Virus record (IMG/VR): IMGVR_UViG_3300032294_001352
Coordinates: 1-64,000 of that record
Source of the DNA: a virus
Strand: one strand, 5' to 3'
DNA: 64,000 bases
Below, one piece after another: positions 2,623 to 50,769 of the stretch. The notes beneath the pieces are model-generated. The model ran no database searches. It saw only the letters and a program-made list of their open reading frames with translations, and was not told the DNA's origin. Both the position numbers and the translations under genes were made by a program. Numbering within the stretch: position 1 is the first letter of the stretch; every line of letters starts with the position of its first letter.

Positions 2623-3546
2623 ATGGGCAGGAATCGACCAAAAGCAGGCGTTGGTGTGGTTCAGCAAGTGGTGAATCAAATCCCCACTGATGGGCAGCCG
2701 ATTGACACGGCCTATCCCTATGAGGATGGCACGTATTATTACTTGTACGGATTTCCTAAGGAAGTACAAGACATGATTATTGGTGGCGGCAATGAAGAAG
2801 CAGAGTATGTTCGGAATGCGTCACCAGAAGAGTATGAGATCCGTAAAGGAACGTACCAAAGTTTGGGTCTAGACATTGAGAATCGTGTGGACCAGCAGAT
2901 ATTTGCGGATCTTACGAGCATGTTTTCCCCAGCAAATGGAGTCATTGCACGGCGCAGCATCAATGTTGGCTACTGGAATCGTGATGAGATCAACATTGAA
3001 AATCTTTCATTTTCTACCACAAAGGAAACGCCAGACTACGTGGGCTTTGCCATGATTGCTCGGCAGGTGACTGCGGCACAGGAGATTGCACGTCGTACCG
3101 GAATGATTGTGCACATAGACGTGAATGCAGCACAGGGTGGTACATATTCCGGTTTCTCAGTCTGGCCAAAACTCGGTTATGACTTTGAGATTCCTGAGCA
3201 ACTACAAACACTTCTTGTAGAGGATTATGGATTCAAAGAGAATGAAGTAGACAAAGGCACTGCCGCATTTATGAGTACATACAATCGCAACGGCTATGAC
3301 GGATATAGCGTGTGGCGTGAAATCACGGAAAATCTCAATCTAAGTTACTCACCAAGTGGGCGCACAACCATCTATCCTGATGGCCGATCAACGCCAGCAC
3401 TGGAAGTGACAAAAGAATACGCACGTCAATTCTCTAAGTCTGTTAAGCGGCAACAGCAGGGTGTCTTTGGGAATGGCCAACTGAGTGACGAAGATGACGC
3501 TATCCTGCATGAGATTTGGATGAACATGCGCAACGCAAAGGATTGA
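2623..3546 (+). CDS. MGRNR-tagged protein 1, GNAT-like acetyltransferase domain
   Basis: N-term MGRNRPKAGVGVV; GFAMIARQVTAA...GFSVWPKLGYDF shared with four paralogs. Confidence 0.6.
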   Translation: MGRNRPKAGVGVVQQVVNQIPTDGQPIDTAYPYEDGTYYYLYGFPKEVQDMIIGGGNEEAEYVRNASPEEYEIRKGTYQSLGLDIENRVDQQIFADLTSMFSPANGVIARRSINVGYWNRDEINIENLSFSTTKETPDYVGFAMIARQVTAAQEIARRTGMIVHIDVNAAQGGTYSGFSVWPKLGYDFEIPEQLQTLLVEDYGFKENEVDKGTAAFMSTYNRNGYDGYSVWREITENLNLSYSPSGRTTIYPDGRSTPALEVTKEYARQFSKSVKRQQQGVFGNGQLSDEDDAILHEIWMNMRNAKD

Positions 3547-4375
3547 TGATGGGGCGCAATCGGAAACGCACAAGTGCCAGTGTTGGAGCAGTCACCTACC
3601 GTATTGTTGAAAGCGGCAGTAGTGGTGACATCACCAAAGAACTTGGTGACTGGTCCACGTATCCACCACGCGCCAAATCCATGTTTCAAGACGGAGTAAG
3701 CACGTTGGCTGCGTTTGTTGCCAGTGATGAGCGATGGTCCAACTTAGTGCGTGACAAGTTTGGGCTTGATCCTGCCAATCCTGCACATCTTGAAGTTGTT
3801 GCGGCAGTCGCAGGAATCACCAGTGCAGAAGACTTAACGCTTGATGATGATGAGGAAAACACCATATTGTCATCTGGGCTTGATTCAAGTGGCCGTGTAT
3901 CTGTGTGGCCATCCGCTGATGGTACACGCATTGACGTGGATATTGGTACGTTTGCCAAATTACGGACATCCAATCAACCACGTCTAGCCTACGCAATGAT
4001 TCGACGCATGGTGTGGGGGATGCGGCAGTGGGCTGAGATACAGGGTGTTCCACCAGAGGGTGCTATTTACAGGCTGAGTCTGATGGAATGGCAATGAATG
4101 GAGTGGAAACATGGGCTAAACTCGGATTCAATTTCACGTTGCGTCGGGAACTCCGTAGTGCCGCAGAAGACGCAGGATTCAGTAGCACAAGCACACTGGA
4201 TCTAATGACGGAGCGGAATGCTAATGGTCAACTAGGCTTTGATGCGTGGAATAGCATTGTAGCCCAAGTGATTGCTGAGGATGGCAGCGCAGAAGCAGAT
4301 GGTGGATTCCAGATTGGAGATGGAAGCAGCAGTTTGCGTGTACTTCAACGATATGGTGAATTACAAGGCTATTAA
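3546..4375 (+). pseudogene. MGRNR-tagged protein 2, GNAT-like, split by a frameshift near 4058-4075 (ORFs 3546-4097 and 4088-4375)
   Basis: First half MGRNRKRTSASVGAV...AYAMIRRMV; second half GVETWAKLGFNF...LMTERNANGQLGFDAW matches the paralog C-termini. Confidence 0.6.
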
Positions 4376-4382
4376 GGAGTAG

Positions 4383-5042
4383 ATGATGGGAAGAAATCGT
4401 AAGAAGCGTGGTGTTGGGGCTGTGGAGGCTAAGATCTATGACGTTTTTGGGAACGTGATTGGAGAAACCACGCCAGAACCTGCGGCAACACCACCAGTGC
4501 AACCACAAACCGTAGAAGCACCAGCACCTGTAGCCAAAGTAAATGACTACATTGCCAATGTCACTGGTGATGGATTAACTAGTGCTACACGCTTGTCACT
4601 GAAAGAGTCAGAGTTTAACGACTTGACTCCTGATCAACGCACCAAGATGTTGCAAGATGTGACGAATGCAGCAGATGACATATCCGTAAAATTGGCTGAG
4701 CGGATTCTTGAACAAGGCGCACCACGCTTTGGTACACCAGAACGCACAGAGTTCCAGAACGCATTGAGCAACGTGGATGAACTGGGCAAAGTGGTATCAC
4801 TCTTGATGCGTGCTGACTTCCAAGATCAAAAGACAAGCCCAAGCAAGGCTGAGGCTGAGCGTGCCTATTTGCCGCAGTGGCGTGACTCATTCCGCTCATA
4901 CGTACTCCGAGAGATCCGTCAAGCCGTGCGCCAGATGGGTGACGCAGCACCAGCAGCACTCCGTGAATTGCGTGGCCAACAACGTGCTGTGGAAGAGGCA
5001 ATAGAGTTTGTACCGATTGCCGCACGGAATCGCGCACGATAG
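4383..5042 (+). CDS. MGRNR-tagged protein 3, helical, unknown function
   Basis: MGRNRKKRGVGAVEAKIYDVFGNVIGE; AAGGAG RBS. Confidence 0.75.
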   Translation: MMGRNRKKRGVGAVEAKIYDVFGNVIGETTPEPAATPPVQPQTVEAPAPVAKVNDYIANVTGDGLTSATRLSLKESEFNDLTPDQRTKMLQDVTNAADDISVKLAERILEQGAPRFGTPERTEFQNALSNVDELGKVVSLLMRADFQDQKTSPSKAEAERAYLPQWRDSFRSYVLREIRQAVRQMGDAAPAALRELRGQQRAVEEAIEFVPIAARNRAR

Positions 5043-5095
5043 TATTGCTGATGCTTGTATGATACAAGTAAGTGGGATTGATAGGAGAATCAAAC

Positions 5096-6343
5096 ATGGG
5101 CCGTAATCGTAAAAAGGGTGGCGCAGGAGCAGGTGCAACGACGGCCACTCCAGTGCCGCAAGCAAACGCAGGAACAATCAATGGTTGGGAGCAAATTGGT
5201 GACAACGCAGACGGAACGCTTACCAAAGTGTTGCCAGATGGCACCGTCTTGACTATCTATCCAACGTCCTCTGGTCCAAATGATTTTGCGATTGACGTTG
5301 AGCAAGATCGAAGTGGTGGCGTTAGTGTGATTGCTGTAGAGGATGCACGCAACGCTGATGGCACGTTCAACATGGATGCAATTGCGGCAGCAGCACAACG
5401 CTACGCAGAAGCGTTGCAATCAGAAGAACCGTATTATGAGGATGAGGCAGAATTACAGTCAGGCCTTATTGACTTTCTCAATGAAATTGGTCGTGAAACT
5501 GGTGCACCTGGCTTCTTTGATCGCTTACTCCGTGGCGAACCAGTGCAGTCACCACAAGCCGTGGCTGAGTCACGCAAATTGGCTGATGAGTCCGCAAAGG
5601 CAGCAGATACGTTTGGTACGGTGGTGCAACGCATGGCACCGGACCAGATGAATGCACAACAGGCTGCTGCGGCACGTCAGGCCATTATCCAAGGCATTCA
5701 GGCTGCTGGTGGTGCACTGAGTAAGCAGGATTTGGCTGATATGCAGCGTATTGCTGGAATGCTCTCACCAAACTTTGTTGAGCGGCAACGGAATCGTGTG
5801 TTGGGTGGAATTGCTGCACTTGGCCGGATGCACGCAGACGTGGCCACGGCTTTGCGTCGTGGTACTAATGCTGGCATTCAGGAAGCGTTGGATCGCACGT
5901 CACGCGTAGAAGACGGCCTCCGTACTACGGTTGACACAGTGATGCAAGGTGCGCTGCAACAAGATGCGTTAGTGCGGCGCCTTAATGCACTATCCAAGCG
6001 TGCTGAGCGTCAGGGATTCCCAGAACCAGCACGTCAGGCCATCATTCAGGCTATCCGCTCATTACCACTTGTAGAACTGGAAAAATCAAGCAGTGGTGCT
6101 GTGGGAATGATTGCGCGCCTTGGTCGCAATGGCTTACTTCCAAGCGTACAAGCCGTAGCACAAGCACGCCAGTTGGGTGGGCGGCAAAACTTGCAGGCCA
6201 ATGTACAGGAAACGGCTGAGGGTATTGCGCGTGCAATCACTATCCGTCGTGAGCAACAAGGCCAGAAGTCACCTGCCAAACAAATCACTGATCGCCTACG
6301 CACGTTAGAGCGTGCCAGTGCTGTAGCACGCTCTGGTCGATAA
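5096..6343 (+). CDS. MGRNR-tagged protein 4, Ala/Gln/Arg-rich helical
   Basis: AGGAG RBS then MGRNRKKGGAGAGA. Confidence 0.75.
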   Translation: MGRNRKKGGAGAGATTATPVPQANAGTINGWEQIGDNADGTLTKVLPDGTVLTIYPTSSGPNDFAIDVEQDRSGGVSVIAVEDARNADGTFNMDAIAAAAQRYAEALQSEEPYYEDEAELQSGLIDFLNEIGRETGAPGFFDRLLRGEPVQSPQAVAESRKLADESAKAADTFGTVVQRMAPDQMNAQQAAAARQAIIQGIQAAGGALSKQDLADMQRIAGMLSPNFVERQRNRVLGGIAALGRMHADVATALRRGTNAGIQEALDRTSRVEDGLRTTVDTVMQGALQQDALVRRLNALSKRAERQGFPEPARQAIIQAIRSLPLVELEKSSSGAVGMIARLGRNGLLPSVQAVAQARQLGGRQNLQANVQETAEGIARAITIRREQQGQKSPAKQITDRLRTLERASAVARSGR

Positions 6344-6395
6344 GACTTGATGATGCATGTAGGATAAATCTAGAACGTAGCAAAGGAGAGATACC

Positions 6396-7346
6396 ATGGG
6401 CCGTAATCGAAAAAAGGGTGGTGGTGCTGGGGCTGTGGAAAATCGTGAACCAGAGTTGGATTCAGGTGGTGGCGGCAATAATCAACCGTTTATCAATCCA
6501 CCAGAACCACAAGAAGAAGTTCCTGTTGAACCGCAGCCACAACCACGTCAACGTATGACACCAGAGCAAGTGTTTGGTCCAGACATTTACGATCCAGGCA
6601 TTCCGCGTCAACTTGAACCAGGCGGCATTCGTACTGCGTGGAATAATGCAACGGCTGCACAACTTGGTCGTGCATTAGAAGATGCGCCAACTGCACAATC
6701 ATTTACGATGATGTACAATTTGCCAACCGCACGCGAGTATTTTGACATTCCATCTAAAGAGCGAGCACCACTCACAAAACGCGAAGTATTGCAGTTGGCT
6801 GACGTGATTGGTGGTTCAGAAATTGTACGAAATGATGGATATGATGCACTTCTTCGTGATCTTGGACTTGAGGGAATGCCGCGTGCAACGTCACGTACTA
6901 TCCGAGTTGGCCGTGACACCAAGCCAATGGTTACGCGCGTCAGTCGGTTAGCACGAAAGTTGCCAGGTATTGAAAATCTTAATCCTGAAGATCGTGCGCG
7001 CGTTGGTGCTATCTTAGACGTGATTGGTGGTATCTCATTGACGCGTGAGCGTGCATGGGAAACCATGATTTTGACTCGTGGTCAAACAACGCCAAAAGGC
7101 GAAGTGATGGGGCGGCAAGTCAAACGATTGATTGCTGAGGGGCGTCGATTGTCTAATGAAATCAATCGCATTATGGGTGATAACACGCCACCACGAAAAG
7201 ATGGACTTCCTAAGCCTGGCACACCTGGTGCACAAGTGTATGACGCTCTCTTCACTAAGGCTGGTCGTGGGCATGATTTCCGCGCACGCAATCACAAGGC
7301 ACCGATGTACGCAGATCGTGGTCTAGAACAAATCAACAACGACTAA
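6396..7346 (+). CDS. MGRNR-tagged protein 5
   Basis: AAGGAG RBS then MGRNRKKGGGAGAVE. Confidence 0.75.
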   Translation: MGRNRKKGGGAGAVENREPELDSGGGGNNQPFINPPEPQEEVPVEPQPQPRQRMTPEQVFGPDIYDPGIPRQLEPGGIRTAWNNATAAQLGRALEDAPTAQSFTMMYNLPTAREYFDIPSKERAPLTKREVLQLADVIGGSEIVRNDGYDALLRDLGLEGMPRATSRTIRVGRDTKPMVTRVSRLARKLPGIENLNPEDRARVGAILDVIGGISLTRERAWETMILTRGQTTPKGEVMGRQVKRLIAEGRRLSNEINRIMGDNTPPRKDGLPKPGTPGAQVYDALFTKAGRGHDFRARNHKAPMYADRGLEQINND

Positions 7347-7367
7347 CGCTACGCTACATGCGGCACT

Positions 7368-7397: not shown

Positions 7398-7410
7398 GTG
7401 ATCAGGTAGA

Positions 7411-9427: not shown

Positions 9428-9771
9428 GTGCATTGATTATCCGCGCCAATGGCGCACACGAAGTCTTGCAGGGGCCTATCACGCTGCAACGCATTGAGCA
9501 GGCCCTTGGTGGCTGGGTGGTGGATGGTGTGACGGATTTGGGCTATCACGTCTGGGGTGCTGACATTGACGTGCTTGATGGCAATATTCCGGCCGATCCT
9601 GTGAAGTATCAGCCAAACATCCACGTATCACGCTTGTTTCGCCTTGTGATGTGGGGTGACGTGGTGGTCACTGGTTCACCGATTGCCAATTCACGGAGTA
9701 ATCGACTTGCGGCAGTGGATGAGAATCATTTGGCGTTGTTTATCAGTCATTTACCAAAGGAGCACGCATGA
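9424..9771 (+). CDS. Divergent DUF3846-like protein
   Basis: ALIIRANG...LQRIEQALGGWV...PN...WGDVVVTG; ATGA overlap with the previous gene. Confidence 0.5.
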   Translation: MSALIIRANGAHEVLQGPITLQRIEQALGGWVVDGVTDLGYHVWGADIDVLDGNIPADPVKYQPNIHVSRLFRLVMWGDVVVTGSPIANSRSNRLAAVDENHLALFISHLPKEHA

Positions 9772-10679
9772 CCAAAATCTTTACCTACTTTGGTGGCGAT
9801 CGCCAATTTGATACCGTGGCAAAGAGTCAGGATATTGAGGCCACGCTGCACGCTCGTGGGCTTGGCCACTATATCCAGATGGCAAAGCCACTCACGCAAC
9901 AGCAGGCAGAAACGTATGGGCATACTGCGGCATATGTCAAAGCGTTGATGACTGGGAATCCGTACTATCTTGCGTCTAGCAGTGGTCTTGCGTGGAATGT
10001 GCACTACCGGAACGCAATCTTTGGCATGGCCGGAGCAATGCTTGAAGCCATGCAATACACGCTTGTCACCAACAAGCCATCGTTCGCCCTTGCGGCAGGA
10101 GCGCATCACGCTCGACCAGAGAAAGGCAAAGGCTTTTGCGCGCTCAACTCCGTGGCCATGGCAGCGTTGTACGCAGCGCGATCCACTGGCCGTCAGGTGT
10201 ACGTGCTTGACGTGGATGCACACGCTGGTGGTGGCACCCAAGCATTCATCAACAAAGAGTACAATGAAGACATTCATCATCTTGATTTGATTGTGCATCC
10301 ATTTGATGCGTATGCGCCTGATCGACCACAAGACGCACAGATCACGGTAGATGTGTACAACATGAATCCAGTGGACGCGTATTTCAGTGGCCTTGGTGAG
10401 TTGCTCTCATTTGTAGACACCTGCTATCCAACCATTCCTGGTGACATCTTGATTGTGAATGCTGGATGTGATGTGCATGAGCAATCAGCCATTGGTGGCT
10501 GGGAGGGAATGGATACAGCGATGATCGCGGTTCGTGAGTCATGGATCCGTGAGTGGGCAGCGGAGCGCGGATTACGGATGGTAGGATTGTTGGCCGGTGG
10601 CTATAGTGATGAGCAATTCACGCCACAGCATCTAGCAGACACGCACGTTGCATCTATTGGCACGTTGATGGGATTATAG
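9768..10679 (+). CDS. Histone deacetylase (HDAC/AcuC) family Zn-dependent deacetylase
   Basis: Motifs GAHHA, GFCALN, LDVDAHAGGGTQ, NAGCDVH and LAGGYS in the canonical order. Confidence 0.9.
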   Translation: MTKIFTYFGGDRQFDTVAKSQDIEATLHARGLGHYIQMAKPLTQQQAETYGHTAAYVKALMTGNPYYLASSSGLAWNVHYRNAIFGMAGAMLEAMQYTLVTNKPSFALAAGAHHARPEKGKGFCALNSVAMAALYAARSTGRQVYVLDVDAHAGGGTQAFINKEYNEDIHHLDLIVHPFDAYAPDRPQDAQITVDVYNMNPVDAYFSGLGELLSFVDTCYPTIPGDILIVNAGCDVHEQSAIGGWEGMDTAMIAVRESWIREWAAERGLRMVGLLAGGYSDEQFTPQHLADTHVASIGTLMGL

Positions 10680-16716: not shown

Positions 16717-17349
16717 CTACGGAGCATTGAGTGTGCGCTCATACGTTGCCTTAGCGCGTTCTAAATCTTGCCGCAGTCGATACACTTTGTATTGATCTCG
16801 TGGTGATGGTACGCCAATCGGTGGGCGCATCAACCGATCAATCTGTTGCTCTAACCTACCAATCTTTTCTGATAGGTTCTGCAACTTCGTTTCTTTTGAT
16901 GTACTTGTAGCAGATGCACGTTGCGTTTGACGCGGTTTTGGCTGCTCAGTAGGTGCTGGCGTGGCCGGTGTTGATGTTTCCGCACGTTCTGTTGGTTCAT
17001 ATTGATAACGTTGAATGTTTTGTCTAGACCATTGATCCATTGCGTCTGATACAACGTTCCAGTTGACTGTTCCATTGACGTTTCGGCTATTAGGAATTGT
17101 GACTAATCCCTCATCTGACATTGTTGTACCGGTACCTTCAACTTCCCATGCGTACAAATCAGGATCAGCAGAATTATTAGCAGTCTGAACAAGTAACTGT
17201 GTGCGATCAGGAAATCTGCGAATAATGCTGTCACCAGAATCATCAAATGGCTTCCAATTTGCATTCATATTCATTGTGTTGGTTGCCGCATTAGTGGGTG
17301 CTTCCGGTGATACTGCACCTGATCCTGCTTTCTTTCGATTACGGCCCAT
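16717..17349 (-). CDS. MGRNR-tagged protein 6
   Basis: MGRNRKKAGSGAV after a GAGGTG RBS; N-domain resembles protein 4 (W..F/I.D..D....PD.T.L). Confidence 0.75.
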   Translation of the reverse strand: MGRNRKKAGSGAVSPEAPTNAATNTMNMNANWKPFDDSGDSIIRRFPDRTQLLVQTANNSADPDLYAWEVEGTGTTMSDEGLVTIPNSRNVNGTVNWNVVSDAMDQWSRQNIQRYQYEPTERAETSTPATPAPTEQPKPRQTQRASATSTSKETKLQNLSEKIGRLEQQIDRLMRPPIGVPSPRDQYKVYRLRQDLERAKATYERTLNAP

Positions 17350-21433: not shown

Positions 21434-22927
21434 ATGGCAAACATCACTGAAGACACCCTTAATTTGATTAAGGCGGCACATGCCCAGCAGGGTGACAACA
21501 TCAGCAAGAGCATTACCACTGCCAATAATTTGGTGGCGTATGACTTGCAGGCACCGGCTAAGAATCTCTATCCGGTACAGACTCCTATCCGCAACACGTT
21601 GCCACGCACCGGTGGTATCGGTACGGCCACCAACTGGCGCACCGTGCGAAACATCATCGGTTCTGGCTTTGATGCCATGGGCTGGGTGCCGGAAGGCCAG
21701 CGCAGTGGTCGCATGTCGTACTTGACGCAATCACTCAGTGCATCGTATAAGACGATGGGTGAGGAAGATCAAGCAACGTACGAAGCCATTAGTGCTGGTC
21801 GTGGCTTCGAAGACATTCGCGCTCGCATGACCATGCGCTTGTTGCAGAAGTTGATGCTCAAAGAGGAAGCAGCCATCATTGGCGGCAACACTTCGGTTTC
21901 ATTGAGCGCTCCGGCTGCGCCAACCGTCAGTGCTGGTGCCTCAGGTGGTACCGTTGCTGCGGATAACTACTACGTCTGGTGTGTTGCGCTCACCTATGAG
22001 GGGTATCGCAACTCAAGCGTTGCCAGTGGCGTGGCCACGAGTCAGACCATCACCGGTGCTGACGGCCTCACCTACACGTTGAGTGGTGGTTCAAGTGCGG
22101 CATCAGCCATCTCATTGGTCCAAGCCATCACCCTTGGTCAGACGCTCCGTGCATCTGTTCCTGTGGTCAACGGTGCGATTGGCTATGCATGGTACGTGTC
22201 AAAGACCAACAACACGGCTGGTACTGCGTTCTTGCAGGCCATCACCACAATCAACTCAGTGGAGTTCACTGCACCAGTGGTTACGAGCGGCACGCAGTTG
22301 GTTACGGCTATCACGGCCAACAACTCAACCAACACCTTGGCCTTTGACGGCTTGATGTATCAGGCATTCAACACGTCAAGTGGTGCCTACGTGCAGCCAT
22401 TGGCCACCGGTACGGCCGGTACTGGCACTCCGTTGACGGCCAGTGGTCGTGGTTCAGTAGAAGAGATTGACGACATGTTGGTCACGATGTGGAACAACAA
22501 CCAGTTGTCACCCACCGTCATCTACTGTAACGCTCAGGAAATCCGCAACATCTCAAACAAGGTGTTGAGTGGCGGCACCAATGCTCCGTTGGTCCGTTAC
22601 AACCTGAACAATGAGCAATCAATGGCTATCGGTGCTAGCCCATTCATTGACTCATACTTCAATCCAATCACCAAGCAGCCATTGAAGGTGGAAGTGCATC
22701 CAAACGTTCCTCCTGGCACGATCTTGGCCTGGGCTGACAACTTGCCAGCACAGTATCAGTCAAGTGAAGTACCAAACGTGGCTGAAATCCGCGCACGTCA
22801 AGACTACTACCAGATTGACTGGCCTGTCACCAGCCGTCAACAACAGGTTGGCGTGTACGCTGAGGAAGTCTTGGTTGTCTACGCTCCGTTTGCGATTGGT
22901 ATCATCACCAACATCGCCAACGGTTAG
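21434..22927 (+). CDS. Major capsid protein (HK97 fold, with insertion domain)
   Basis: Position after protease-scaffold; AGGAGG RBS; YDLQAPAK.LYP..TP.RN.LPR and AFDGL motifs. Confidence 0.85.
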   Translation: MANITEDTLNLIKAAHAQQGDNISKSITTANNLVAYDLQAPAKNLYPVQTPIRNTLPRTGGIGTATNWRTVRNIIGSGFDAMGWVPEGQRSGRMSYLTQSLSASYKTMGEEDQATYEAISAGRGFEDIRARMTMRLLQKLMLKEEAAIIGGNTSVSLSAPAAPTVSAGASGGTVAADNYYVWCVALTYEGYRNSSVASGVATSQTITGADGLTYTLSGGSSAASAISLVQAITLGQTLRASVPVVNGAIGYAWYVSKTNNTAGTAFLQAITTINSVEFTAPVVTSGTQLVTAITANNSTNTLAFDGLMYQAFNTSSGAYVQPLATGTAGTGTPLTASGRGSVEEIDDMLVTMWNNNQLSPTVIYCNAQEIRNISNKVLSGGTNAPLVRYNLNNEQSMAIGASPFIDSYFNPITKQPLKVEVHPNVPPGTILAWADNLPAQYQSSEVPNVAEIRARQDYYQIDWPVTSRQQQVGVYAEEVLVVYAPFAIGIITNIANG

Positions 22928-25653: not shown

Positions 25654-25871
25654 CGTTATACATCCAATACGACAACACCAAACTTCCCAACTGGGTAACG
25701 TTCTTGGAGTTGGCTGAGATGTGGCACGTACCACCATGGCAGTTAGAAGAAGCGGATGACCAAGGGCTTCTGATGCAATGGGCAGTACGTGCCTTTGCGT
25801 GGCGAGATGCCAAGAATAAGAGAGAGGATCGGATAGCAAATGGCCGAAGTATCAGTAAGCGTCATTGGTAA
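25629..25871 (+). CDS. -1 frameshift extension of the tail chaperone (GT-like)
   Basis: CTA AAA AAA A at 25627-25636; the -1 frame reads NERRQLALY...LAEMWHVPPWQLEE...W to TAA at 25871. Confidence 0.75.
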   Translation, partial: KKNERRQLALYIQYDNTKLPNWVTFLELAEMWHVPPWQLEEADDQGLLMQWAVRAFAWRDAKNKREDRIANGRSISKRHW

Positions 25872-39495: not shown

Positions 39496-42400
39496 CTACT
39501 TTTTTTTTCCGGCCGGTGGATAGGTGTTCTTGGCCGGTGCCTGCAAGTCACGCTTCTTTCCCTGCTTGACTCCAATAGATGGCACGAACGCAGACGTGAT
39601 GTCTTTTTTCATGCCAGCCTTTTGCCGCAGTACTTCCGCTCCGGTGGATTGGTTCTTGGGTGACATGATGTTCTTGGGCATGGCCGTAGTATCACTCATG
39701 GCCTTACTCACTTTGCGTGCAGCCGTGCTACGACCACCAGACGTGTTGACGCGCACCGTTGACGTGCTGTGTGTGCCAGCACCGTAGCCAGGTACAGACC
39801 ACGCAAGATCACTTCCTTTGCCGCCAACATAACTTGGGCCTTGGTCCGTGGCCACTCGACCAGTGTACGTTCCTTTTGGCGTTGGCACTGGTGTGCTTTG
39901 TGGGGGCACAGCGCGCTTCTTCACAGGAGTAGCACGCTTTGCCATCTTCTGTGTGCCAATCAAATCCACAGGATCAGCAAACGTCTTTTGCTCCGTGCTC
40001 AGTTTTGGTTGTGACGTGCTTGCCGCACGCTTCTTCATAGGAGTAGCAGCCTTTTTCATGTTCACTCCGTGTTTTGATGATAACGCTTGTAAGTCTGACT
40101 GGGCTTTGCTGATGGCAGCCTGCTTCTTTAAGTCAGAGGAAATAGCACTGAGCGCAATCTGACGATCGTATCCGGTGCGTTTTGGACCACGATCACTCAC
40201 ACCCTTTGACGGTGGGGCTGTGTAGCGTGTTGGTTCTGGCTTTGAGGCAACCGTTGGCGTAGGTGCTGGTGTTGCTGCAGGTGTAGGAGTAGGCGCACTA
40301 GGCATGTTGGCCTCACCTGCACTTGGCGTAGGTGCTGGTGTTGGCGTAGTGGCAGGCTTTGGCGTAGCATATTGCTTGGCCTTGTTCTTGTTCCATGACG
40401 CAGTGCGCTTGGACCACTCTTCATAGGCCTTCCGATTGGCTTCCATCTGTGCAGCCGTTGGTCCAGGCTTGGTTGACGGTGGCTGAGTTGTACCAGTTGG
40501 CTTTGCCGCACTTCCTGATGTCATTGGGCCTTTTGGCAGTGACGTGTACGGTGGCGCAGGCCGTGCCTTTTCCTTTGGTGTTGACGTGGCCACAGGTGGC
40601 TTCCCAGACGTAGCAGGTGCACTCGGCTTTGTACCAGTTGGCTGTGCGGAACTGGTTGGTTTAGTCGTTGACGTAGCAACAGGTGGCCGTGTGGTAGACG
40701 TAGGAGCACCTAATCCCACATCACCGGCTGCCGCAGTTGGCCGTGGCGTGTACGTAGGAATGCTAGTGCCAGTTGGTCGTGGACTACTCGTTGGCACAGA
40801 AGTACTTGTTGGCTGCTTTGTGCTGGTTGATCGTGGCGTACTTGTGGCCAGATTCCCACCGGATTTTGGCGTTGCTGTGGTGGTCAAGCCGACATCACCG
40901 GCTGCCGCAGTCGGACGCGGAGTACTGCTCGGCTGAATGGTGCTTGTTGGCCGTGGCGTATTGGTCGGAATCGTCGTGCTTGACGGCCGTGGTGTGCTTG
41001 TTGGCTGCGGAGTATTGGTTGACGTGCGCGTGCTTGTTGCAGTACGCGTGTTACTGGCTGTTGGAGTCTGAGTGATGATGGTTGGTTCAATCAAATCAGA
41101 CTCAACTTCTTCAATGGTACGAGTATTGGTGGCCGTTGGCGAACGTGTGCCAGTCGCGGTTGACGTGGCCGTGGCTGTCGGCGAGCGAGTACCAGTTACT
41201 GTGGCTGTCGGTGTTTCCGTGGCACCAGTAGGTGTTGGCGTGCGTGTTCCTCGGGTGGCCAGTTCCGTTTCTGCCGCACGTACTTTCCCTTTTTCCTGCT
41301 CATACCGGCCTTGCGATCCGTAGATGTCATAGTAGGAAGTACCGTATGGCACTTCAATGTTTCGTGTGGGATACGCAGTGCGCGTAGCCGTGGCCGTAGG
41401 AGTGGATGTTGGCGTGCTAGTAGCCGTGGCAGTTTCCGTTGACGTAGCCGTTGGCGTTGGTGTGAACGTCATACCTGGCGGCAAACCAGTATCTTCCGTA
41501 GGTGATGGTGTAGCCGTTGGTGTAGCCGTTGGTGTAGTCGTTGGTGTGGCTGTGGTTGCTGATGTAGCCGTAGCCGGTAAGCCATCATCAGACATCCGAC
41601 TGCGACCACTTCGTGCGCTATAGCGTTGCGTGGTCTTTGCTGGTCGTGCCTTGGTCACCTGCTTGGCTTTGGCCATCTTTGGAGTCATTGGTACGTTCAT
41701 GGACCACTCAATCGTTGGTTCTGCCGCACCCATGCGTGTGACGTGACGATCCTCACGCTCTTTCTTGAAGTCTTTGACTGACTTTGGTGTGTTGAGTTTG
41801 ACACCCTTTTTCATGGTGGTAGCCTTTGCACTGAGCGCAATCTGACGATCATATCCAGTACGCTTTGGACCACGGTCACTCACGCCTTTAGGAGCAGGAG
41901 CACCGGTGGTCAACCGAGTGCGTGGTGGTGTGGGATTAGCAGCCGGAGTTGGCGTGGGAGCAGGTGCTAGAGCAGTTGTTGCCGCAGGTGCTGGTGCTGG
42001 AGCGGATGGCTTATCAATTCCTACATCACCAGACGCAGCCGACGGCTTGGGTGCAGCGTACTGTTGTGACTTTGTTTTGTTCCATGTAGCAGTGCGCTTT
42101 GCCCATGACTCATAGGCCTTACGGTTGGCCTCCATTTGCTCCGGTGTTGGACTAGGCTTAGATGCGCCAGTTCCTGGCCGATCTGACTTTGGACCTGCCG
42201 CAGTAGCAGAGTAATCACTAGGTGAGCGCCCACTTGCATTTGGCGTGGCCGTTGGCGTGGCCGTAGATGGTGGCTGTGTACCTGATCGTTTTGCAGGAGC
42301 ACGAGTGGCAGTACGTGTTGGCGTACGAGTAGGAGTTCGTGTTTTGGCTTGTGCTGTCTGCGTCTTTTGCCGCACAGCCGTCTGTGTCTTCTGCGGATTA

Positions 42401-42897
42401 GTTTGAGTAGCAGTACGAGTAGCAGTACGAGTAGCCGTGCGTGAGGCCGTTGGCGTAAACGTTGGGGCTACCGTGGTCGCTGTGAGTGACGGTGTTGATG
42501 TTGTAGTTGGCGTAGCCGTATCCGTAGGCACACGCGTGTACGTAGGTGACGGTGTGCGTGTGCTGGTTGGTGTGGTGGTAGGCGTACCAGTAGCCGTAGC
42601 CGTGTTAGTCGGTGTACTAGTACTTGTAGCCGTATTGGTAGCCGTGGCCGTTGTTGACGGAGTTGGCGTGGATGACGGAGTAGGAGTGGAAGTGCTTTGC
42701 ACTGGTGGTTTGGATGTTGGTCGCGGTGCCCATCGTGGTGCCGCAATTCCACTATCAGGAGTTGGTGTGATTGTTGACGGTGGCTGCGTTGATCCAATAG
42801 TAGCAGACCGACGCACTACTTTCCGTTTTTGCACCTTAGCGTTTGAAAGTGTCTTCTTCATATCTGTCCTTTGTGCAACAGGGGAATCAGCACTCAA
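39496..42897 (-). CDS. 1133-aa Thr/Pro/Lys-rich disordered protein with internal duplications
   Basis: Long open frame; TPT repeats; duplicated MEANRKAYE.W.KRTA.WNK and KGVSDRGPKRTGYDRQIALSA blocks; start could instead be 42861. Confidence 0.75.
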   Translation of the reverse strand: MSADSPVAQRTDMKKTLSNAKVQKRKVVRRSATIGSTQPPSTITPTPDSGIAAPRWAPRPTSKPPVQSTSTPTPSSTPTPSTTATATNTATSTSTPTNTATATGTPTTTPTSTRTPSPTYTRVPTDTATPTTTSTPSLTATTVAPTFTPTASRTATRTATRTATQTNPQKTQTAVRQKTQTAQAKTRTPTRTPTRTATRAPAKRSGTQPPSTATPTATPNASGRSPSDYSATAAGPKSDRPGTGASKPSPTPEQMEANRKAYESWAKRTATWNKTKSQQYAAPKPSAASGDVGIDKPSAPAPAPAATTALAPAPTPTPAANPTPPRTRLTTGAPAPKGVSDRGPKRTGYDRQIALSAKATTMKKGVKLNTPKSVKDFKKEREDRHVTRMGAAEPTIEWSMNVPMTPKMAKAKQVTKARPAKTTQRYSARSGRSRMSDDGLPATATSATTATPTTTPTATPTATPSPTEDTGLPPGMTFTPTPTATSTETATATSTPTSTPTATATRTAYPTRNIEVPYGTSYYDIYGSQGRYEQEKGKVRAAETELATRGTRTPTPTGATETPTATVTGTRSPTATATSTATGTRSPTATNTRTIEEVESDLIEPTIITQTPTASNTRTATSTRTSTNTPQPTSTPRPSSTTIPTNTPRPTSTIQPSSTPRPTAAAGDVGLTTTATPKSGGNLATSTPRSTSTKQPTSTSVPTSSPRPTGTSIPTYTPRPTAAAGDVGLGAPTSTTRPPVATSTTKPTSSAQPTGTKPSAPATSGKPPVATSTPKEKARPAPPYTSLPKGPMTSGSAAKPTGTTQPPSTKPGPTAAQMEANRKAYEEWSKRTASWNKNKAKQYATPKPATTPTPAPTPSAGEANMPSAPTPTPAATPAPTPTVASKPEPTRYTAPPSKGVSDRGPKRTGYDRQIALSAISSDLKKQAAISKAQSDLQALSSKHGVNMKKAATPMKKRAASTSQPKLSTEQKTFADPVDLIGTQKMAKRATPVKKRAVPPQSTPVPTPKGTYTGRVATDQGPSYVGGKGSDLAWSVPGYGAGTHSTSTVRVNTSGGRSTAARKVSKAMSDTTAMPKNIMSPKNQSTGAEVLRQKAGMKKDITSAFVPSIGVKQGKKRDLQAPAKNTYPPAGKKK

Positions 42898-45820: not shown

Positions 45821-46366
45821 ATGGCAAAGCAGCAGAAAACATCACCAAAAGCCATAAAAGCAGCAGAAACTGCGTTGCGTGCCTTGGAACTGCGTAAGGC
45901 CGGAGCAACCTACGAAACCATAGCCCAGATGCTCGGCTATGCGTCTAAGTCAACGGCTTTCACGGCTGTCAACAGAATCATGAGTCAAACCAAACGCGAG
46001 GCAACCAAAGAAGCGTTTGAGATGGAACTGCGGCGCCTAGATGATTTGATGATGACGCTCTGGCCACTGGCGCGTGCTGGTGACAACATGGCTGCCATTG
46101 ATCGAGTGCTCAGAATCATGGAACGTCGTGCCAAACTGCTTGGCCTAGACGCACCTGAGAAATCACAGCAGCAGATTCAGCAGATTATCCGTGTGCAGTA
46201 TGAAGACGTACAATTCCAGCCCACGGAGTTTGAACCAGATGTTCCACTGCCGCAGTTAAACGCACCAACCGTAGAAGTGGTCTACGAGGATGAGGCTGAA
46301 GAAACACTTGATGATGAGCATATGATAGAAGAAGATGAACAAGATGATGACGATCGTGAGGATTGA
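45821..46366 (+). CDS. Terminase small subunit
   Basis: ALELRKAGATYETIAQMLG HTH...ELRRLD.L...AIDRVLRIMERRAKLLGLDAP. Confidence 0.75.
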   Translation: MAKQQKTSPKAIKAAETALRALELRKAGATYETIAQMLGYASKSTAFTAVNRIMSQTKREATKEAFEMELRRLDDLMMTLWPLARAGDNMAAIDRVLRIMERRAKLLGLDAPEKSQQQIQQIIRVQYEDVQFQPTEFEPDVPLPQLNAPTVEVVYEDEAEETLDDEHMIEEDEQDDDDRED

Positions 46367-46368
46367 TT

Positions 46369-46827
46369 ATGGGGCGCAATCGAAAAAAGTCTGGCGTAGG
46401 CGCAGTGACTGCGGCACCGGCACCACCGGAGCGTGGTGGTGAGCGTGTGCGAATGGATCGTGCGTTCAATCAACTTCCGGTGGATCGCATCATTCAAGAA
46501 CTGCGTGACAACGTCAGTTTTAACCTACCAGACGTAGAAGACACGTACCGTGAGCGTGACACCGGATTCTCTATAGATAACCGTCAGGAAATGCAAGACT
46601 TCATTGACCAGTTGATGAGTGCGAAGCGGCAAGATGGTTCATGGGATATGAACGCACTGGATGCAGCAGCGCAATACTTCCAAGACGCTCCGTCACGCGA
46701 AGTGTTTTTCCCTGATAATAAAGCAAGAATTGGTGACTTTGGTGAGGAACTGGCTGGCTTCTTACGAGATGTGCGGCAAGCGTATGAACGTGGTGGTGAC
46801 GAGGCAGTTCGTCAGTTAGGAGTGTAG
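46369..46827 (+). CDS. MGRNR-tagged protein 7
   Basis: MGRNRKKSGVGAV; shares R..DG...M.A..AAAQ with protein 4. Confidence 0.75.
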   Translation: MGRNRKKSGVGAVTAAPAPPERGGERVRMDRAFNQLPVDRIIQELRDNVSFNLPDVEDTYRERDTGFSIDNRQEMQDFIDQLMSAKRQDGSWDMNALDAAAQYFQDAPSREVFFPDNKARIGDFGEELAGFLRDVRQAYERGGDEAVRQLGV

Positions 46828-46828
46828 T

Positions 46829-47725
46829 ATGCCATTTGTGATGCAAGAGCGACCAGACGGCCGGATTAACGTCGTCAATCCAATTACTGGGGAAGTCAAA
46901 GGCACGCACAAGAACAAGCGGCAAGCGTTGGCACAGATGCGTGCGTTGTACGCCAATGTACCAGATGCAATGCAGAAGCGTCGTAACAATGAACCGACCA
47001 ATCCGCAACTGTGGATGCAGGCCAAGAACCAGGCTAAGCGTCGATTCACGGTGTATCCATCAGCCTATGCCAATGCGTGGGCAGCACGGTGGTATAAGGA
47101 GCATGGAGGTGGATGGAAAGAAGCATCATCACCACCGACGGAAACGCGTGATCCACGGAGCGTACAGAAAGATCTGCGTGAGTGGTTTAAGGAAGACTGG
47201 GTGGACATCTCTAAGCCTATCCGTGAGAACGGAAAGATTGTTGGCTATGAGCAATGCGGCAGGGCTGAGGCTGAGGCCTCTGAGGGTGGTTATCCCAAGT
47301 GTCTGCCCAAAGCCAAAGCAATGAAGTTGTCAGAGATGGACCGGTTGAAACTGATTGCACGGAAGCGTCGTGCTGGTACGCCAACGGATGGCAAACCTAT
47401 CATGACAAGCAGCATGACGAAGAAAGCGGCAACGGCTAAGGCACTCTTACAGAAGATGCAGCGGATGTATCAACCTGAGGAATGGGTGGACATTACCAAG
47501 CCTATCCGTGACAACGCAGGATTGATTGTGGGCTTTCAAGATGTCACCTACAAAAAGGAAGCCAAGTTTCCTATGCGTCGTCAGCAGGCTGTCAAGATGA
47601 CGGAGCAAGAGCGGCAAGCACTTATCCGCAATCGCTTTGGCCACATGCTTACGGATGATGGTGTACCAGTTGCGTCAAAGAAAGAAAAGACCATGAAGAA
47701 GTATGGTCGGTACAAGCGTCAGTAG
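46829..47725 (+). CDS. DUF5872-like basic multi-module phage protein
   Basis: YPSAYANAWAARWYKEHGGGW; LREWFKEDWVDI..P; CGR...YPKCLP; WVDI.KPIR occurs twice. Confidence 0.6.
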   Translation: MPFVMQERPDGRINVVNPITGEVKGTHKNKRQALAQMRALYANVPDAMQKRRNNEPTNPQLWMQAKNQAKRRFTVYPSAYANAWAARWYKEHGGGWKEASSPPTETRDPRSVQKDLREWFKEDWVDISKPIRENGKIVGYEQCGRAEAEASEGGYPKCLPKAKAMKLSEMDRLKLIARKRRAGTPTDGKPIMTSSMTKKAATAKALLQKMQRMYQPEEWVDITKPIRDNAGLIVGFQDVTYKKEAKFPMRRQQAVKMTEQERQALIRNRFGHMLTDDGVPVASKKEKTMKKYGRYKRQ

Positions 47726-47739
47726 CACTGAGGAAACAC

Positions 47740-48567
47740 ATGGGAAGAAATCGCAAACCATCTCGGGAAGTTGCAGCACCTGCGGCAAGTGTGGAGTCCG
47801 TGAGCAAACGGATTAACACCACGCTTGAAGACGCACTCTGGTCCATGTCCACACAAGGCCTCATCTATGATGGCGAGTACGTGGTGCGTGACAATCTGGC
47901 CGACGAAGCCTTTCGAGATGGAATGCGTTATCTGGGGCTGAATCCAGATCGGCCTCGCGATGTGGAGATTATTGCGGCAGCCATAGGAATCTTTGGCGAG
48001 GAAGAAAGTGACATCTACGTGCGCCCAGCAGATGCTCAGTACGATATGGGAATCATATCCATGAGCATGGCTGCAGAAGCCCAACGTGGATTCAAAGTGC
48101 TGCCAGATAAAGTGGTCGTGGAAAACGTGTCATTTGCCAAAGGCCTCACTCCGTCAGACAACATTGGCTATGCAATGCTCGTGCGGCAAGCGTGGGCACT
48201 CCGAAAGATCGGTGAGCGATTAGGCAAACCAGTGGTAGTCAGCACGTCAGCACTCAGTGATGATGACTACTGGAAAGGCGTGCAAGTGTGGCCAAAGATG
48301 GGCTACAACTTCCCACTCACAGGTATTATCCGTGAGCGTGCCATGGCCAATGGCTTCCAAGCACGCAACACTCCGGAACTGATGACTGAAGTCAATGCCG
48401 CAGGCGAAACAGGATACGATGCGTGGGGCAGGATCGTTAGTGAGGCGTTGAAATACATGCCAGACAAAGAACTCCGTATCCGTGGCAGCATGACGGTGAC
48501 GGATGACAATGATACTGGACTTCAGGTGTTGTTGAACTATGGGCGGCAAAAAGGAATATTGGAGTAG
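47740..48567 (+). CDS. MGRNR-tagged protein 8, GNAT-like
   Basis: MGRNRKP; IGYAMLVRQA...GVQVWPKMGYNF. Confidence 0.65.
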   Translation: MGRNRKPSREVAAPAASVESVSKRINTTLEDALWSMSTQGLIYDGEYVVRDNLADEAFRDGMRYLGLNPDRPRDVEIIAAAIGIFGEEESDIYVRPADAQYDMGIISMSMAAEAQRGFKVLPDKVVVENVSFAKGLTPSDNIGYAMLVRQAWALRKIGERLGKPVVVSTSALSDDDYWKGVQVWPKMGYNFPLTGIIRERAMANGFQARNTPELMTEVNAAGETGYDAWGRIVSEALKYMPDKELRIRGSMTVTDDNDTGLQVLLNYGRQKGILE

Positions 48568-48570
48568 CAC

Positions 48571-49692
48571 ATGGGCAGGAATCGACGTAAAGCCGGAGTA
48601 GGTGCTGTGGAGCGTGCAGTCTATGACATCTTTGGCAACATCATTGGCCAAGAAGATGACGTTGCTCCTACTCCTACGGAAACCATCACTACCATATCCG
48701 ATCCTGACTTTGAACACGTAGATACCACCGTGTTCAATCCTGTGGCATACTCTGCAACGTTACAAACTATGCTCAAAGAGCAATATGCTGATATGAATCA
48801 AGTGATCTCTATAGGAATGGAGTATTTGAAATCTATATCTGGCAATTCTCAGGATGACTGGATAATAAATAACATGCCGCAAGTACAAACTGTAAAAGGA
48901 ATGATTGCATTAGGATTAGATCCTCAAGTACCGTCTGATAGACGTTTATATACTGATTTAATATCAGGAACAAGCAATTTTTATTCAGGTAAGTGGAATC
49001 CCTCACCTGAAGAAAGAAAGGAAATGCGAAAGCAAGATGCATCTGTACCTGATACTGGAGATGTAGAGTTTGAAGTAGGATTCAGCAGACGCATTAAAGT
49101 AGATAATCCAACAAAAGTAGTAATATCCAATGTGTCATTTTCAGCATCAAAGACTGCTCCTCCAGGAATTGGCTATATGATGATTGCACGTCAGATTAGT
49201 GCCGCGCGTCAACTTGCAAAAAAATTAGGAAAACCAGTAGAGATTGAAACAACTGCTCATAACTCAGAACAATCACAAAAAACAAAGAAGGGTAATACCG
49301 GTTTTCACGTTTGGCCAAAACTTGGCTATGTCTTTGAGATTCCTGAAACCGTCAAAGTTGAATTGCGTCGCATGGGATTTACAGACAAACAAATGAACAA
49401 TTCAGCAACACTGATGCAAAGCCGAAATCCACAAGGCCAACTTGGTTTTGACGTGTGGAGTAAAGCACTAGTAGCAGAAGGTGATAGTAAGTGGGCTGTG
49501 AATGGAAGAACAGTCATAAATCCGAATGCATCAACACCATCACCTGCTGAGCAAGTCACGATTGCCTACGGAAAGCGCAAAGGCTATCTCAAAATGCAGC
49601 AGAATAAGCGGCAAAACAATGACGTGTTCCTCAGTTCAGAAGATGACGCAATCCTACGTGACGTGTGGGCTTCCATGGGAAGATTGGAGTAG
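48571..49692 (+). CDS. MGRNR-tagged protein 9, GNAT-like
   Basis: MGRNRRKAGVGAVERAVYDIFGN; GIGYMMIARQI...GFHVWPKLGYVF. Confidence 0.65.
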   Translation: MGRNRRKAGVGAVERAVYDIFGNIIGQEDDVAPTPTETITTISDPDFEHVDTTVFNPVAYSATLQTMLKEQYADMNQVISIGMEYLKSISGNSQDDWIINNMPQVQTVKGMIALGLDPQVPSDRRLYTDLISGTSNFYSGKWNPSPEERKEMRKQDASVPDTGDVEFEVGFSRRIKVDNPTKVVISNVSFSASKTAPPGIGYMMIARQISAARQLAKKLGKPVEIETTAHNSEQSQKTKKGNTGFHVWPKLGYVFEIPETVKVELRRMGFTDKQMNNSATLMQSRNPQGQLGFDVWSKALVAEGDSKWAVNGRTVINPNASTPSPAEQVTIAYGKRKGYLKMQQNKRQNNDVFLSSEDDAILRDVWASMGRLE

Positions 49693-49695
49693 CAG

Positions 49696-50769
49696 ATGGG
49701 CAGAAACCGGAAAAAGGCTGGTGTGGGCGCGGTTGAACGTGCTATCTACGATATTTTTGGCAACGTGATTGGCCAAGAAGATGAGAATGCGGCACCTGCT
49801 CCGGTGAGCGATCAACCAGTCATTCTTACCGGAGCGGAACTCACGCGCCAGTTAGGTGACACCAGTGGATTCTCACCCAATGTCCGGAAGTTGTTCACTG
49901 ACGTGGAATCACCTATCGTCACCAATGATCCGCGCGTACAAAAGAACATGCGGCAACTGGGATTGGATGACACCAATCCTGAGCATCGCCGAATCTTTCG
50001 CATTCTGTTTGGCTTACATGAAGGCACTGGGAAAATGGAGCATCCCAATCCGGCCATCTTGGTGAATGATGACCAAGAGATTATAGACGCCGATGCCGCA
50101 TTCTCCGTTGGATCACGTGGGAAGTTCGCAGGTGTGGATCGTGCAGCAAACTCCACAATGCGTCTGGCCATCATCAAAGGCGATAACGTCATCATTGAGA
50201 ATCACACCTACGTGATGACGGATCCGAATGAGCAGATGCAAGGTGCTGGCTATGCCATGCTCCGGATGCAGGCCTATGCCGCACGCAGACTCAATGAGAT
50301 AACTGGGCGCAACGTCACCATCCGGACCACAGCACTCTCACGAGATGCACGGCTTGATCCGAATGGGATAGAGTGGGTGGGTGCGCATACGTGGCCAAAG
50401 TTAGGCTATGACTTTGACTTCAACGATCCGCGCGTGCCTAGTGATTTGGTGGAATCACTCCGTGCCGCAGGCTTCAAGAGTATGCGTAGCAGCGACTTGA
50501 TGAGTGAAGTCAACGCAGATGGTGAGCGTGGCTATGACGTGTGGCCGTTCATTGTGGATGAGATTCTAAGCATTGATGGCCAACTGAGCATGAAAGGCAC
50601 CATGAACGTCACCAATGACAACGATCGTGGACTCCAAGTCATGCAGAACTATGGGCGGCAAAAGGGAATCGTTAAGGGTGGCACGACGCGCAACGTGGGT
50701 GGCGTGGATGGGATTACACTGACTGGGATGGATAACGATATTCTTCGCCAACTGTGGCAGCAGATATAG
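49696..50769 (+). CDS. MGRNR-tagged protein 10, GNAT-like
   Basis: MGRNRKKAGVGAVERAIYDIFGN; QMQGAGYAML (QxxGxG)...GAHTWPKLGYDF. Confidence 0.7.
   Translation: MGRNRKKAGVGAVERAIYDIFGNVIGQEDENAAPAPVSDQPVILTGAELTRQLGDTSGFSPNVRKLFTDVESPIVTNDPRVQKNMRQLGLDDTNPEHRRIFRILFGLHEGTGKMEHPNPAILVNDDQEIIDADAAFSVGSRGKFAGVDRAANSTMRLAIIKGDNVIIENHTYVMTDPNEQMQGAGYAMLRMQAYAARRLNEITGRNVTIRTTALSRDARLDPNGIEWVGAHTWPKLGYDFDFNDPRVPSDLVESLRAAGFKSMRSSDLMSEVNADGERGYDVWPFIVDEILSIDGQLSMKGTMNVTNDNDRGLQVMQNYGRQKGIVKGGTTRNVGGVDGITLTGMDNDILRQLWQQI

Follow-up and report, generated by a model that had tools for sequence, protein, structure and literature searches.

A short N-terminal peptide on thirteen cysteine-free phage proteins is a candidate address label for effectors carried in the virion

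Why should a phage begin a whole series of different proteins with one and the same short peptide? The question is raised by a stretch of 64,000 bases (hereafter the window), positions 1–64,000 of the 87,876-base virus record IMGVR_UViG_3300032294_001352, in which dispersed genes start with the codons for MGRNR followed by basic and then small residues. The original prediction, made from the letters of the window, was that this N-terminal tag directs a set of effectors into the phage head for injection, or else that it is a shared modification site. After analysis of the whole record and of related sequences, the best explanation is that MGRNR(K/R)K-x-G-x-G-A-V serves throughout the genome as an N-terminal address label, borne by at least 13 cargo proteins that lack cysteine and are rich in arginine.

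When the window was searched for GRNR in all six frames, 12 matches were returned. Two are internal and unrelated, and ten correspond to M-GRNR at the start of open reading frames (ORFs) of 152–415 residues, located at 2623, 3549, 4386, 5096, 6396, 17349(-), 46369, 47740, 48571 and 49696. All ten starts that had been proposed were borne out, each with a Shine-Dalgarno-like purine run upstream; two of them had been given double coordinates (3546/3549 and 4383/4386) because a second ATG lies one codon upstream at 3549 and 4386. The search for MGRNR across the full genome, which the original prediction had called for, was run on the whole record and revealed three further tagged genes outside the window, 69006(-), 82872(-) and 84210(-). 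The total is 13 tagged genes in five places and on both strands. Residues M1, G2, R3, N4 and R5 are invariant (13/13). Position 6 is K in ten proteins, R in two and P in one, and position 7 is K in 11, R in one and P in one; the expected KK/RK continuation is found in that each of these positions is K or R in 12 of the 13. The glycine at aligned position 11 is nearly invariant, most tags continue with small residues (G-x-G-A-V), and the net charge over the first seven residues is +4 to +5. A longer form of the tag, ..E/D-x-x-(I/V)YD(I/V)FGN(I/V)IG, in which the acidic residue and the YD(I/V)FGN(I/V)IG module are followed by a Pro/Ala/Thr-rich linker, had been noticed in three copies; it was seen in these three (4386, 48571 and 49696) and in a fourth, 69006(-). 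The proposed likeness to histone tails proved to be limited to composition.

Clustering of 2986 candidate starts gave a GRNR cluster of 13 members, the next-largest cluster having three. The reversed genome did not contain any cluster of three or more, 20 shuffles gave clusters of two at most, and no comparable start cluster was found in eight other phage sequences. Synonymous codon use is broad: Gly2 is encoded by three codons, Arg3 by five and Arg5 by four, and over codons 2–5 pairs of genes differ at a mean of 2.9 of 12 bases. Since the five codons of Arg3 come from both the AGR and the CGN boxes, it is the peptide that is kept rather than the DNA, as had been claimed. Gene conversion keeping the DNA alike was considered and dropped, the codons being different. 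Together, these results show that the tag exists and that it is selected at the peptide level.

The proteins behind the tag were compared by blastp after removal of the first 30 residues. Those encoded at 2623, 47740, 48571 and 49696 were joined (E 1e-13 to 1e-38) and 3549 was joined to them more weakly, giving a family of five that we call family 1. A weak group of four (5096, 84210(-), 17349(-) and 46369) shares N-proximal similarity (E 4e-6 to 3e-3), and 4386, 6396, 69006(-) and 82872(-) showed no similarity to other tagged bodies at E ≤ 0.01 and are singletons. There are at least six body types; the claim that the bodies fall into several unrelated types stands insofar as the types differ, but five of the bodies belong to one family. 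None of the 13 proteins had a significant family match in Pfam or PHROGs, and those of the window had no Pfam family at E ≤ 0.1, GNAT models included. The 47740 protein was chosen for a structure model (pLDDT 93.9). With this model Foldseek returned nothing at E ≤ 0.001, its top rows being GNAT enzymes (best E 0.012), while 46 of the 50 best rows of a VIA search were, by title, acetyl- or acyltransferases of GNAT or related type, among them the toxins AtaT and TacT and N-terminal acetyltransferases. The VIA Z values were only 5.2–6.6 (best row: root-mean-square deviation (rmsd) 4.1 over 133 aligned residues). A distant relative, P0152, matches the Pfam GNAT models PF00583 and PF13508. On the strength of these models, family 1 (2623, 3549 together with 4088, 47740, 48571 and 49696) is described here as GNAT-like, which is not proof that it is GNAT. 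The cargo would consist of five divergent GNAT-like proteins and eight proteins with no recognised fold, most of them bearing the label on a flexible Pro/Ala-rich linker.

Homologues without a tag in related phages would have spoken against the original prediction, and relatives were found to keep MG-basic tags. Protein P0002, the one homologue that a word-index search retrieved, is 41% identical overall and almost unchanged over its first 27 residues. Exhaustive searching of 1.84 billion representatives with a profile produced 183 matches at E ≤ 0.001. The best 150 of these 183 comprise six proteins of the record itself; 25 other proteins of less than 600 residues that start with MG and a basic tag (MGRNRK.., MGTRRKK.., MGTRTYSRR.., MGRGRKP.. 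or MGGRG..); 59 small proteins without such a start (52 begin with M and seven are N-terminally incomplete), several of which begin inside a tag or have one a few residues in; and 60 proteins of 600–2917 residues that carry the family 1 domain internally. Six profile matches cover the tag only, on other bodies, for example P0185, P0186, P0204, P0255 and P0265 from other samples. Some giant relatives (P0147–P0151, P0157 and P0159, 800–2300 residues) begin with a conserved leader of 30–50 residues, ..HLRG.H.Q..HAWNRG. It is directly followed by (M/T)G(R/K/G/V)GG, so that the Gly/Arg motif is internal in these proteins, which may represent a processed precursor form.

The metagenome locus L019, from the nearest relative, allowed the tag to be compared between genomes. 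Its DUF4417 domain is 68% identical to that of the phage studied here, and its gene order is ParB-DUF4417, the large terminase gene TerL, portal and six consecutive genes starting with MGTRTYSRR, after which the contig ends. One of these six is the orthologue of window gene 2623 (35% identity over 295 residues, E 4e-49). These comparisons show that the type of tag goes with the genome and not with the cargo. One tag on all the cargo of a genome and another on orthologous cargo elsewhere is the pattern expected of an address label that is read by a genome-encoded partner.

A second property common to the tagged proteins is the lack of cysteine. The 13 proteins contain none in 3785 residues, whereas the other ORFs of at least 100 residues (greedy map) have a mean of 1.5% and are cysteine-free in only 13 of 73 cases (Mann-Whitney p 2e-6). 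Arginine is raised (8.7% vs 5.6%) and lysine is not, and the bodies are mostly acidic to neutral. Cysteine is also rare in the tagged relatives (8 in 7644 residues, with 19 of the 25 lacking it) and in the six tagged proteins of L019 (2 in 1381 residues). Proteins known to be ejected were examined for comparison. The P22 ejection proteins gp7, gp20 and gp16 have no cysteine in 1309 residues, and scaffold and needle are also cysteine-free, whereas 20 of 21 other P22 proteins checked contain it. In T7, gp14, gp15 and gp16 have a single cysteine in 2261 residues (in gp14), scaffold gp9 and gp7.3 have none, and cysteine is present in 10 of 10 non-structural proteins checked. The absence of cysteine agrees with storage in the particle and passage through the tail, but does not prove them. 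The untagged cysteine-free ORFs of the record include the tape measure protein (none in 1658 residues). Another is a 1133-residue ORF without Pfam or PHROG match, at 39496–42897(-), on the opposite strand, with the tail genes on one side of it and the third tagged cluster on the other; it could encode another ejected protein.

Which protein might read the label? The 421-residue ParB-DUF4417 fusion is encoded at record positions 73192–74457 (PF14386, E 7e-21; the ParB-like N-terminal part is seen by PHROGs). Its stop codon overlaps the start of TerL, and a portal gene (704 residues) then follows. By tblastn, DUF4417 was found in 465 phage records, mostly of mycobacteriophages, of which seven were examined. 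Five of them (A25, L5, Roseburia phage Jekyll, Gordonia phage Switzerland and Tourach) have an ORF with an MGGRG start by the DUF4417 stop. The ORF of L5 (L014 1081–1419), unannotated and of 112 codons, overlaps the end of gene 1 (DUF4417) in a frame that differs from that of annotated gene 2; in Gordonia phage Switzerland (L016 1245–2132), MGGRG lies in frame, 79 codons upstream of annotated gene 2, a VIP2-like ADP-ribosyltransferase gene. A metagenome scan yielded 80 DUF4417 loci, 66 of them non-duplicate and long enough downstream. Within -80 to +60 bases of the DUF4417 stop, 40 of these 66 loci have a Gly/Arg-rich M[GAS] start, compared with 38 of 2161 other ORFs (1.8%), and in five DUF4417 loci the same start recurs on at least two genes. 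The tagged ORFs adjoining DUF4417 contain 0.18% cysteine vs 1.48%, and 10.4% arginine. These data show a link, in other genomes, between DUF4417 and genes with Gly/Arg-rich tags. Two homologues of the GNAT-like family 1 cargo carry MGGRG tags, which ties the two tag classes together.

The DUF4417 domain itself was modelled as a TIM-type barrel (pLDDT 88.1). The best Foldseek rows were designed IGPS-type barrels (E 5e-4), TGT appearing only at E 5e-3 with a TM-score of 0.41. With VIA, TGT-family chains occupied four of the top five rows, tied with unrelated TIM barrels within 1 Z: QTRT2 (Z 9.3, rmsd 3.5, 174 residues aligned), ArcTGT (9.2, 3.4, 174), DpdA (9.0, 3.9, 171) and bacterial TGT (8.9, 3.6, 171). 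A search of the record for a QueC-like gene (PF06508) gave no match at E ≤ 1, the control being positive in 14 of 14 genomes, and a canonical TGT gene (PF01702) was likewise not matched in the record. A complex prediction of the DUF4417 domain with the first 40 residues of tagged proteins scored 0.12 against a mark of 0.32; it was run without controls and counts neither way. The portion consulted of a preprint on ParB-fold fusions describes ParB-DUF4417 as frequent in phages and does not assign it a function. No published description of the pairing of DUF4417 with tags was found in a literature search, although supplements (e.g. that of PMC9503650) may list DUF4417 contexts.

On this evidence, we put at about even the chances that the tag labels effectors which are loaded into the virion and ejected from it, and about a third of that estimate rests on DUF4417 as the reader. 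The cargo would be made late in infection, for which the supporting context is the cluster at 46369–50769, packed head to tail with the endolysin gene. One phage-encoded partner would then recognise the label, the best candidate being ParB-DUF4417 and a head component being the alternative. The cargo would be loaded into the virion, the tag possibly being removed, and would leave through the tail with the DNA to act on the host at the very start of infection. The presence of the family 1 cargo domain inside giant multi-domain proteins elsewhere was counted in favour of the effector reading. Effectors encoded beside terminase or portal genes, or fused to MuF, have been inferred in the literature to be head-packaged (PMC9503650). 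As a claim, the address tag for injected effectors fits the genome-following tag, the absence of cysteine, the cargo domain of the giant proteins and the late-gene position; the part that did not hold generally is the T4-type cleavage motif, seen in only some copies. A more specific mechanism can be formulated, in which ParB-DUF4417 would be an enzyme of the packaging module that couples the free N-terminus of the tagged proteins to a nucleobase or to phage DNA, the unfolded, cysteine-free cargo then being threaded into the head and out through the tail with the genome. We consider this version rather improbable.

How does such a label compare with known systems? In phage T4, a short N-terminal capsid-targeting sequence shared by the internal proteins and Alt directs unrelated proteins into the head for injection with the DNA; it ends in a site for the prohead protease of T4 and is removed. 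The likeness lies in one N-terminal peptide common to unrelated proteins, here 13 proteins of at least six body types. Unlike in T4, there is a DUF4417 gene, the genome is of siphovirus type with a tape measure protein, the packaging of the tagged proteins is inferred, the tags have no sequence likeness to the T4 sequence, and a ..V-E motif follows the tag in only 4 of the 13 proteins, beside a protease of S78 type. The ejection proteins of P22 (gp7, gp20, gp16) and T7 (gp14, gp15, gp16) resemble the tagged proteins in being cysteine-free, or nearly so, within a cysteine-containing proteome and in being encoded with late or structural genes. They are, however, fixed structural components without a common N-terminal tag, whereas the 13 tagged proteins are polymorphic and partly enzymatic. 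MuF- and portal-fused polymorphic toxins and polyvalent proteins share swappable effector domains and head delivery with the system proposed here, and the GNAT-like domain also occurs elsewhere inside proteins of 800–2900 residues. In the fused toxins a whole head domain acts as carrier, as against a peptide of 13–30 residues on separate small proteins; no Pfam match to MuF was found in the tagged proteins.

With regard to chemistry, the nearest known system is the type IV cyclic-oligonucleotide-based antiphage signalling system (CBASS). Its CD-NTase starts with M(G/S)G(G/S)GG, Cap9 adds deazaguanine to G2 and the TGT-type barrel Cap10 holds G2 (bioRxiv 10.1101/2025.04.06.647259). What is shared is an N-terminal M-G tag together with a TIM-barrel protein that has TGT enzymes among its best structural matches, in the case of DUF4417 tied with other barrels. 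Type IV CBASS differs in being a defence system rather than a phage system and in having one substrate instead of many; it needs a QueC-like Cap9, which had no match here, and its motif is a Gly run as opposed to MGRNR(K/R)K. Two of its three defining features are not seen in the present record. The DUF4417-adjacent tagged genes of other phages are similar in having DUF4417 in the packaging module, an M-G tag, polymorphic, Cys-poor and Arg-rich cargo, and the same GNAT-like family with MGGRG tags. They differ in that their tag is a Gly run and not a basic R-N-R-K-K stretch; here the tag is present in 13 copies over five loci, and DUF4417 is fused to a ParB-like domain directly before TerL and does not adjoin the tagged genes.

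Several observations weigh against the reading of the tag as an address label for ejected effectors. The phage is uncultivated, and the packaging of its tagged proteins is a prediction. No tagged gene adjoins DUF4417, the nearest being 4.2 kb upstream (on the other strand) and 7.7 kb downstream; in L019 also, TerL and portal separate DUF4417 from the tagged genes. Two further metagenome loci, L020 and L021, with DUF4417 domains 55–56% identical to that of the record, had no tagged genes in the 12–20 kb examined, the tag was absent from two of the seven DUF4417 phages (Mic1, on closer look, and MT835546, by the criterion scan only), and 26 of the 66 metagenome loci had none at the adjoining position. 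The tag of the window is dominated by R, N and K, with two to four Gly in its first 13 residues, and fails the stricter Gly/Arg criterion; what links it to the DUF4417-adjacent tags is therefore the shared cargo family, the shared avoidance of cysteine and the presence of the DUF4417 gene. As for cleavage, a motif of the type ..A-V-E follows the tag in 4 of the 13 proteins and A-I-D in one, and the protease of the phage is of S78 type, not T4-type. Finally, the lack of cysteine is not specific, since 13 untagged ORFs of this record and P22 GtrB are also without it, and secreted proteins of many bacteria are Cys-poor too.

The rival that survives best is that the tag is a handle for covalent modification and not for packaging, Gly2 or the adjacent Lys/Arg being modified after Met removal by the DUF4417 enzyme. 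We judge it unlikely. Every tag of this kind starts with M-G (M-A or M-S in other DUF4417 loci), and such starts allow removal of the methionine by methionine aminopeptidase. Type IV CBASS offers a precedent for chemistry on an N-terminal Gly with a TGT-type barrel, and DUF4417 models as a TIM-type barrel with TGT-family chains high in VIA. The window also holds an HDAC-family deacetylase gene (9768–10679; PF00850, E 4e-28), and another possibility is that the GNAT-like and HDAC proteins of the phage acetylate and deacetylate the tag. Either kind of modification would activate the cargo or attach it to a target. On the other hand, neither a QueC-like nor a canonical TGT gene was matched in the record, the TGT rows are tied with unrelated barrels in VIA and weak in Foldseek, and the tag of the window differs from the Gly-run motif of CBASS. 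The complete lack of cysteine and the position of the L019 tagged genes after the portal would both be left unexplained by modification alone. Eukaryote-type N-myristoylation of Gly2 was dropped for want of such a host.

Could the tag be a generic nucleic-acid-binding basic tail that places proteins on DNA or RNA, in the manner of RGG or AT-hook sequences, with no dedicated receptor? The net charge of its first seven residues, the RGG-like character of DUF4417-adjacent tags elsewhere and the mostly acidic to neutral bodies, which let the tail dominate the local charge, would agree with this. Generic charge, however, does not require identity at G-R-N-R in 13 of 13 proteins, and it leaves Asn4 and the conserved hydrophobic ..YDIFGNVIG module unexplained. 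One exact tag per genome, with genomes differing from each other, points to a specific reader, and we regard the basic-tail explanation as improbable.

A third alternative is an export or secretion signal, used inside or out of the infected cell, as opposed to a capsid signal. In its favour are the basic N-terminus of the tag with the small residues behind it and the Cys-poor composition, which is typical of secreted proteins too. Yet the tag offers only about six small, weakly hydrophobic residues (G-V-G-A-V) and neither a hydrophobic core nor a signal-peptidase-type site; no secretion genes were found among the ORFs scanned; and the tagged genes of L019 directly follow TerL and portal. Export is thus very improbable. 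A Sec or Tat signal in particular was dropped, there being no hydrophobic core and no twin-Arg context. Last, gene duplication may have left the common start behind, or the start may serve translation initiation or regulation, the peptide as such being without function. This idea can draw on the 5 of 13 proteins that are paralogues and the four more that may be, but it is close to refuted and hardly credible given the synonymous codon variation under an unchanged peptide, the four bodies without detectable similarity to any other, the tag-only matches on other bodies (P0185, P0186, P0204, P0255 and P0265) and the orthologous body that wears a different tag in L019.

The tagged genes of the window lie as follows. 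Gene 2623..3546(+) encodes a protein of 307 residues that starts MGRNRPKAGVGVV and has a GNAT-like family 1 body without cysteine. It is followed by 3549..4097(+), which as assembled encodes 182 residues and corresponds to the N-terminal part of the fifth family 1 protein; the C-terminal part, with the WAKLGF-type core of the family, is in an untagged ORF of 95 residues at 4088..4375(+). A 276-residue database protein, P0155, is 100% identical to ORF 3549 and 99% identical to ORF 4088–4375, and the two frames are joined by four additional letters behind 4067 in a contig that stems from the probable source sample. The split in the record is an assembly difference or a population variant. Gene 4386..5042(+) (218 residues) has the long tag ..GAVE..IYDVFGNVIG, a Pro/Ala-rich linker and a singleton body, 5096..6343(+) (415 residues) belongs to the weak group of four, and 6396..7346(+) (316 residues) has a singleton body. 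The tag of this last gene itself differs between close strains: freshwater strains (runs X3 and X4) show a 3-letter deletion at 6401 and dense substitutions in its tag-coding start (6396–6425). Gene 16717..17349(-) (210 residues; weak group) runs divergently from the head protease fusion gene and lies about 1.1 kb upstream of it. The remaining cluster consists of 46369..46827(+) (152 residues; weak group), 47740..48567(+) (275 residues), 48571..49692(+) (373 residues, long tag) and 49696..50769(+) (357 residues, long tag), the last three being of family 1; the final gene ends 24 bases before the endolysin gene.

Promoter and terminator scans around two clusters, 46369–50769 among them, gave counts that were not above those of shuffles, a weak hint that the clusters are without internal promoters. 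Just upstream of three tagged loci, the untagged ORFs 2122–2613, 45821–46366 and record 69017–69364(-) are cysteine-free; the one at 45821 has a weak helix-turn-helix match. They could encode partners or regulators of the cargo genes. An Atlas model of the 69006(-) product (L009 3957–5006(-)) was weakly nearest to portal-fused, minor-capsid (PF06152) and MuF proteins (TM-score 0.41–0.45, feature score 0.85) and was not used as evidence; according to this model, the product may be the MuF-like head protein of the phage.

The record has a terminal direct repeat of about 123 bases, and the GC content of the window is 50%. The phage is of siphovirus type: the window encodes a 1658-residue tape measure protein (25840–30816) and minor tail proteins, together with the head protease fusion (18481–21417), which is a 978-residue protein with an S78 prohead protease domain, a conserved head-region protein of 497 residues (21434–22927) and an amidase/glucosaminidase endolysin (50794–51948). 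Beyond the window, a Mom-family gene precedes the ParB-like/DUF4417 fusion, TerL and portal; these four form one tight row (record 72518–77899; L009 8518–13899). A separate small terminase gene was not recognised in this row, and the DUF4417 fusion occupies the position expected for one. The record also encodes a C5 methylase and a dCTP-deaminase-like protein. Pieces of the window recur in three freshwater metagenome studies with a likeness of at least 99%. No relative was found in the phage collection by blastn and tblastn. Scans of IMG/VR gave no match to the DUF4417 protein, eight single matches to the back-translated tag, all in unrelated small ORFs, and two distant, untagged large proteins related to family 1 in records without DUF4417, to which little weight is given since both records are fragments (15% and 74% complete). 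Among 185,579 representative genomes, family 1 had no match and no prophage relative was found, and the tag pattern had 57 single matches, about the chance estimate, none of them in a relative.

What would such a label mean for the biology of these phages? If it works, a peptide of 13–30 residues suffices to send any protein into a siphovirus particle and then into the host, and designed cargo could be loaded into phage particles in laboratory strains by means of it. Injected effectors of uncultivated phages could then be recognised by a simple rule, namely shared MG-basic starts together with the lack of cysteine; the zero-cysteine signature, as checked on P22 and T7, may in itself be a cheap general predictor of ejected phage proteins. 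An HDAC-family gene and five GNAT-like proteins co-occur in this one phage, and as cargo the latter, with the HDAC-family gene, would suggest that host targets are acylated within the first seconds of infection, anti-defence being one possible purpose. DUF4417, which hundreds of well-studied mycobacteriophages possess, would by this reading, if true, receive its first function, and its place beside the terminase would be explained. Should the tagged proteins indeed be joined to DNA, this would be a protein-DNA conjugation route for swappable effectors, extending from L5-like mycobacteriophages to freshwater phages, with lineage-specific tags.

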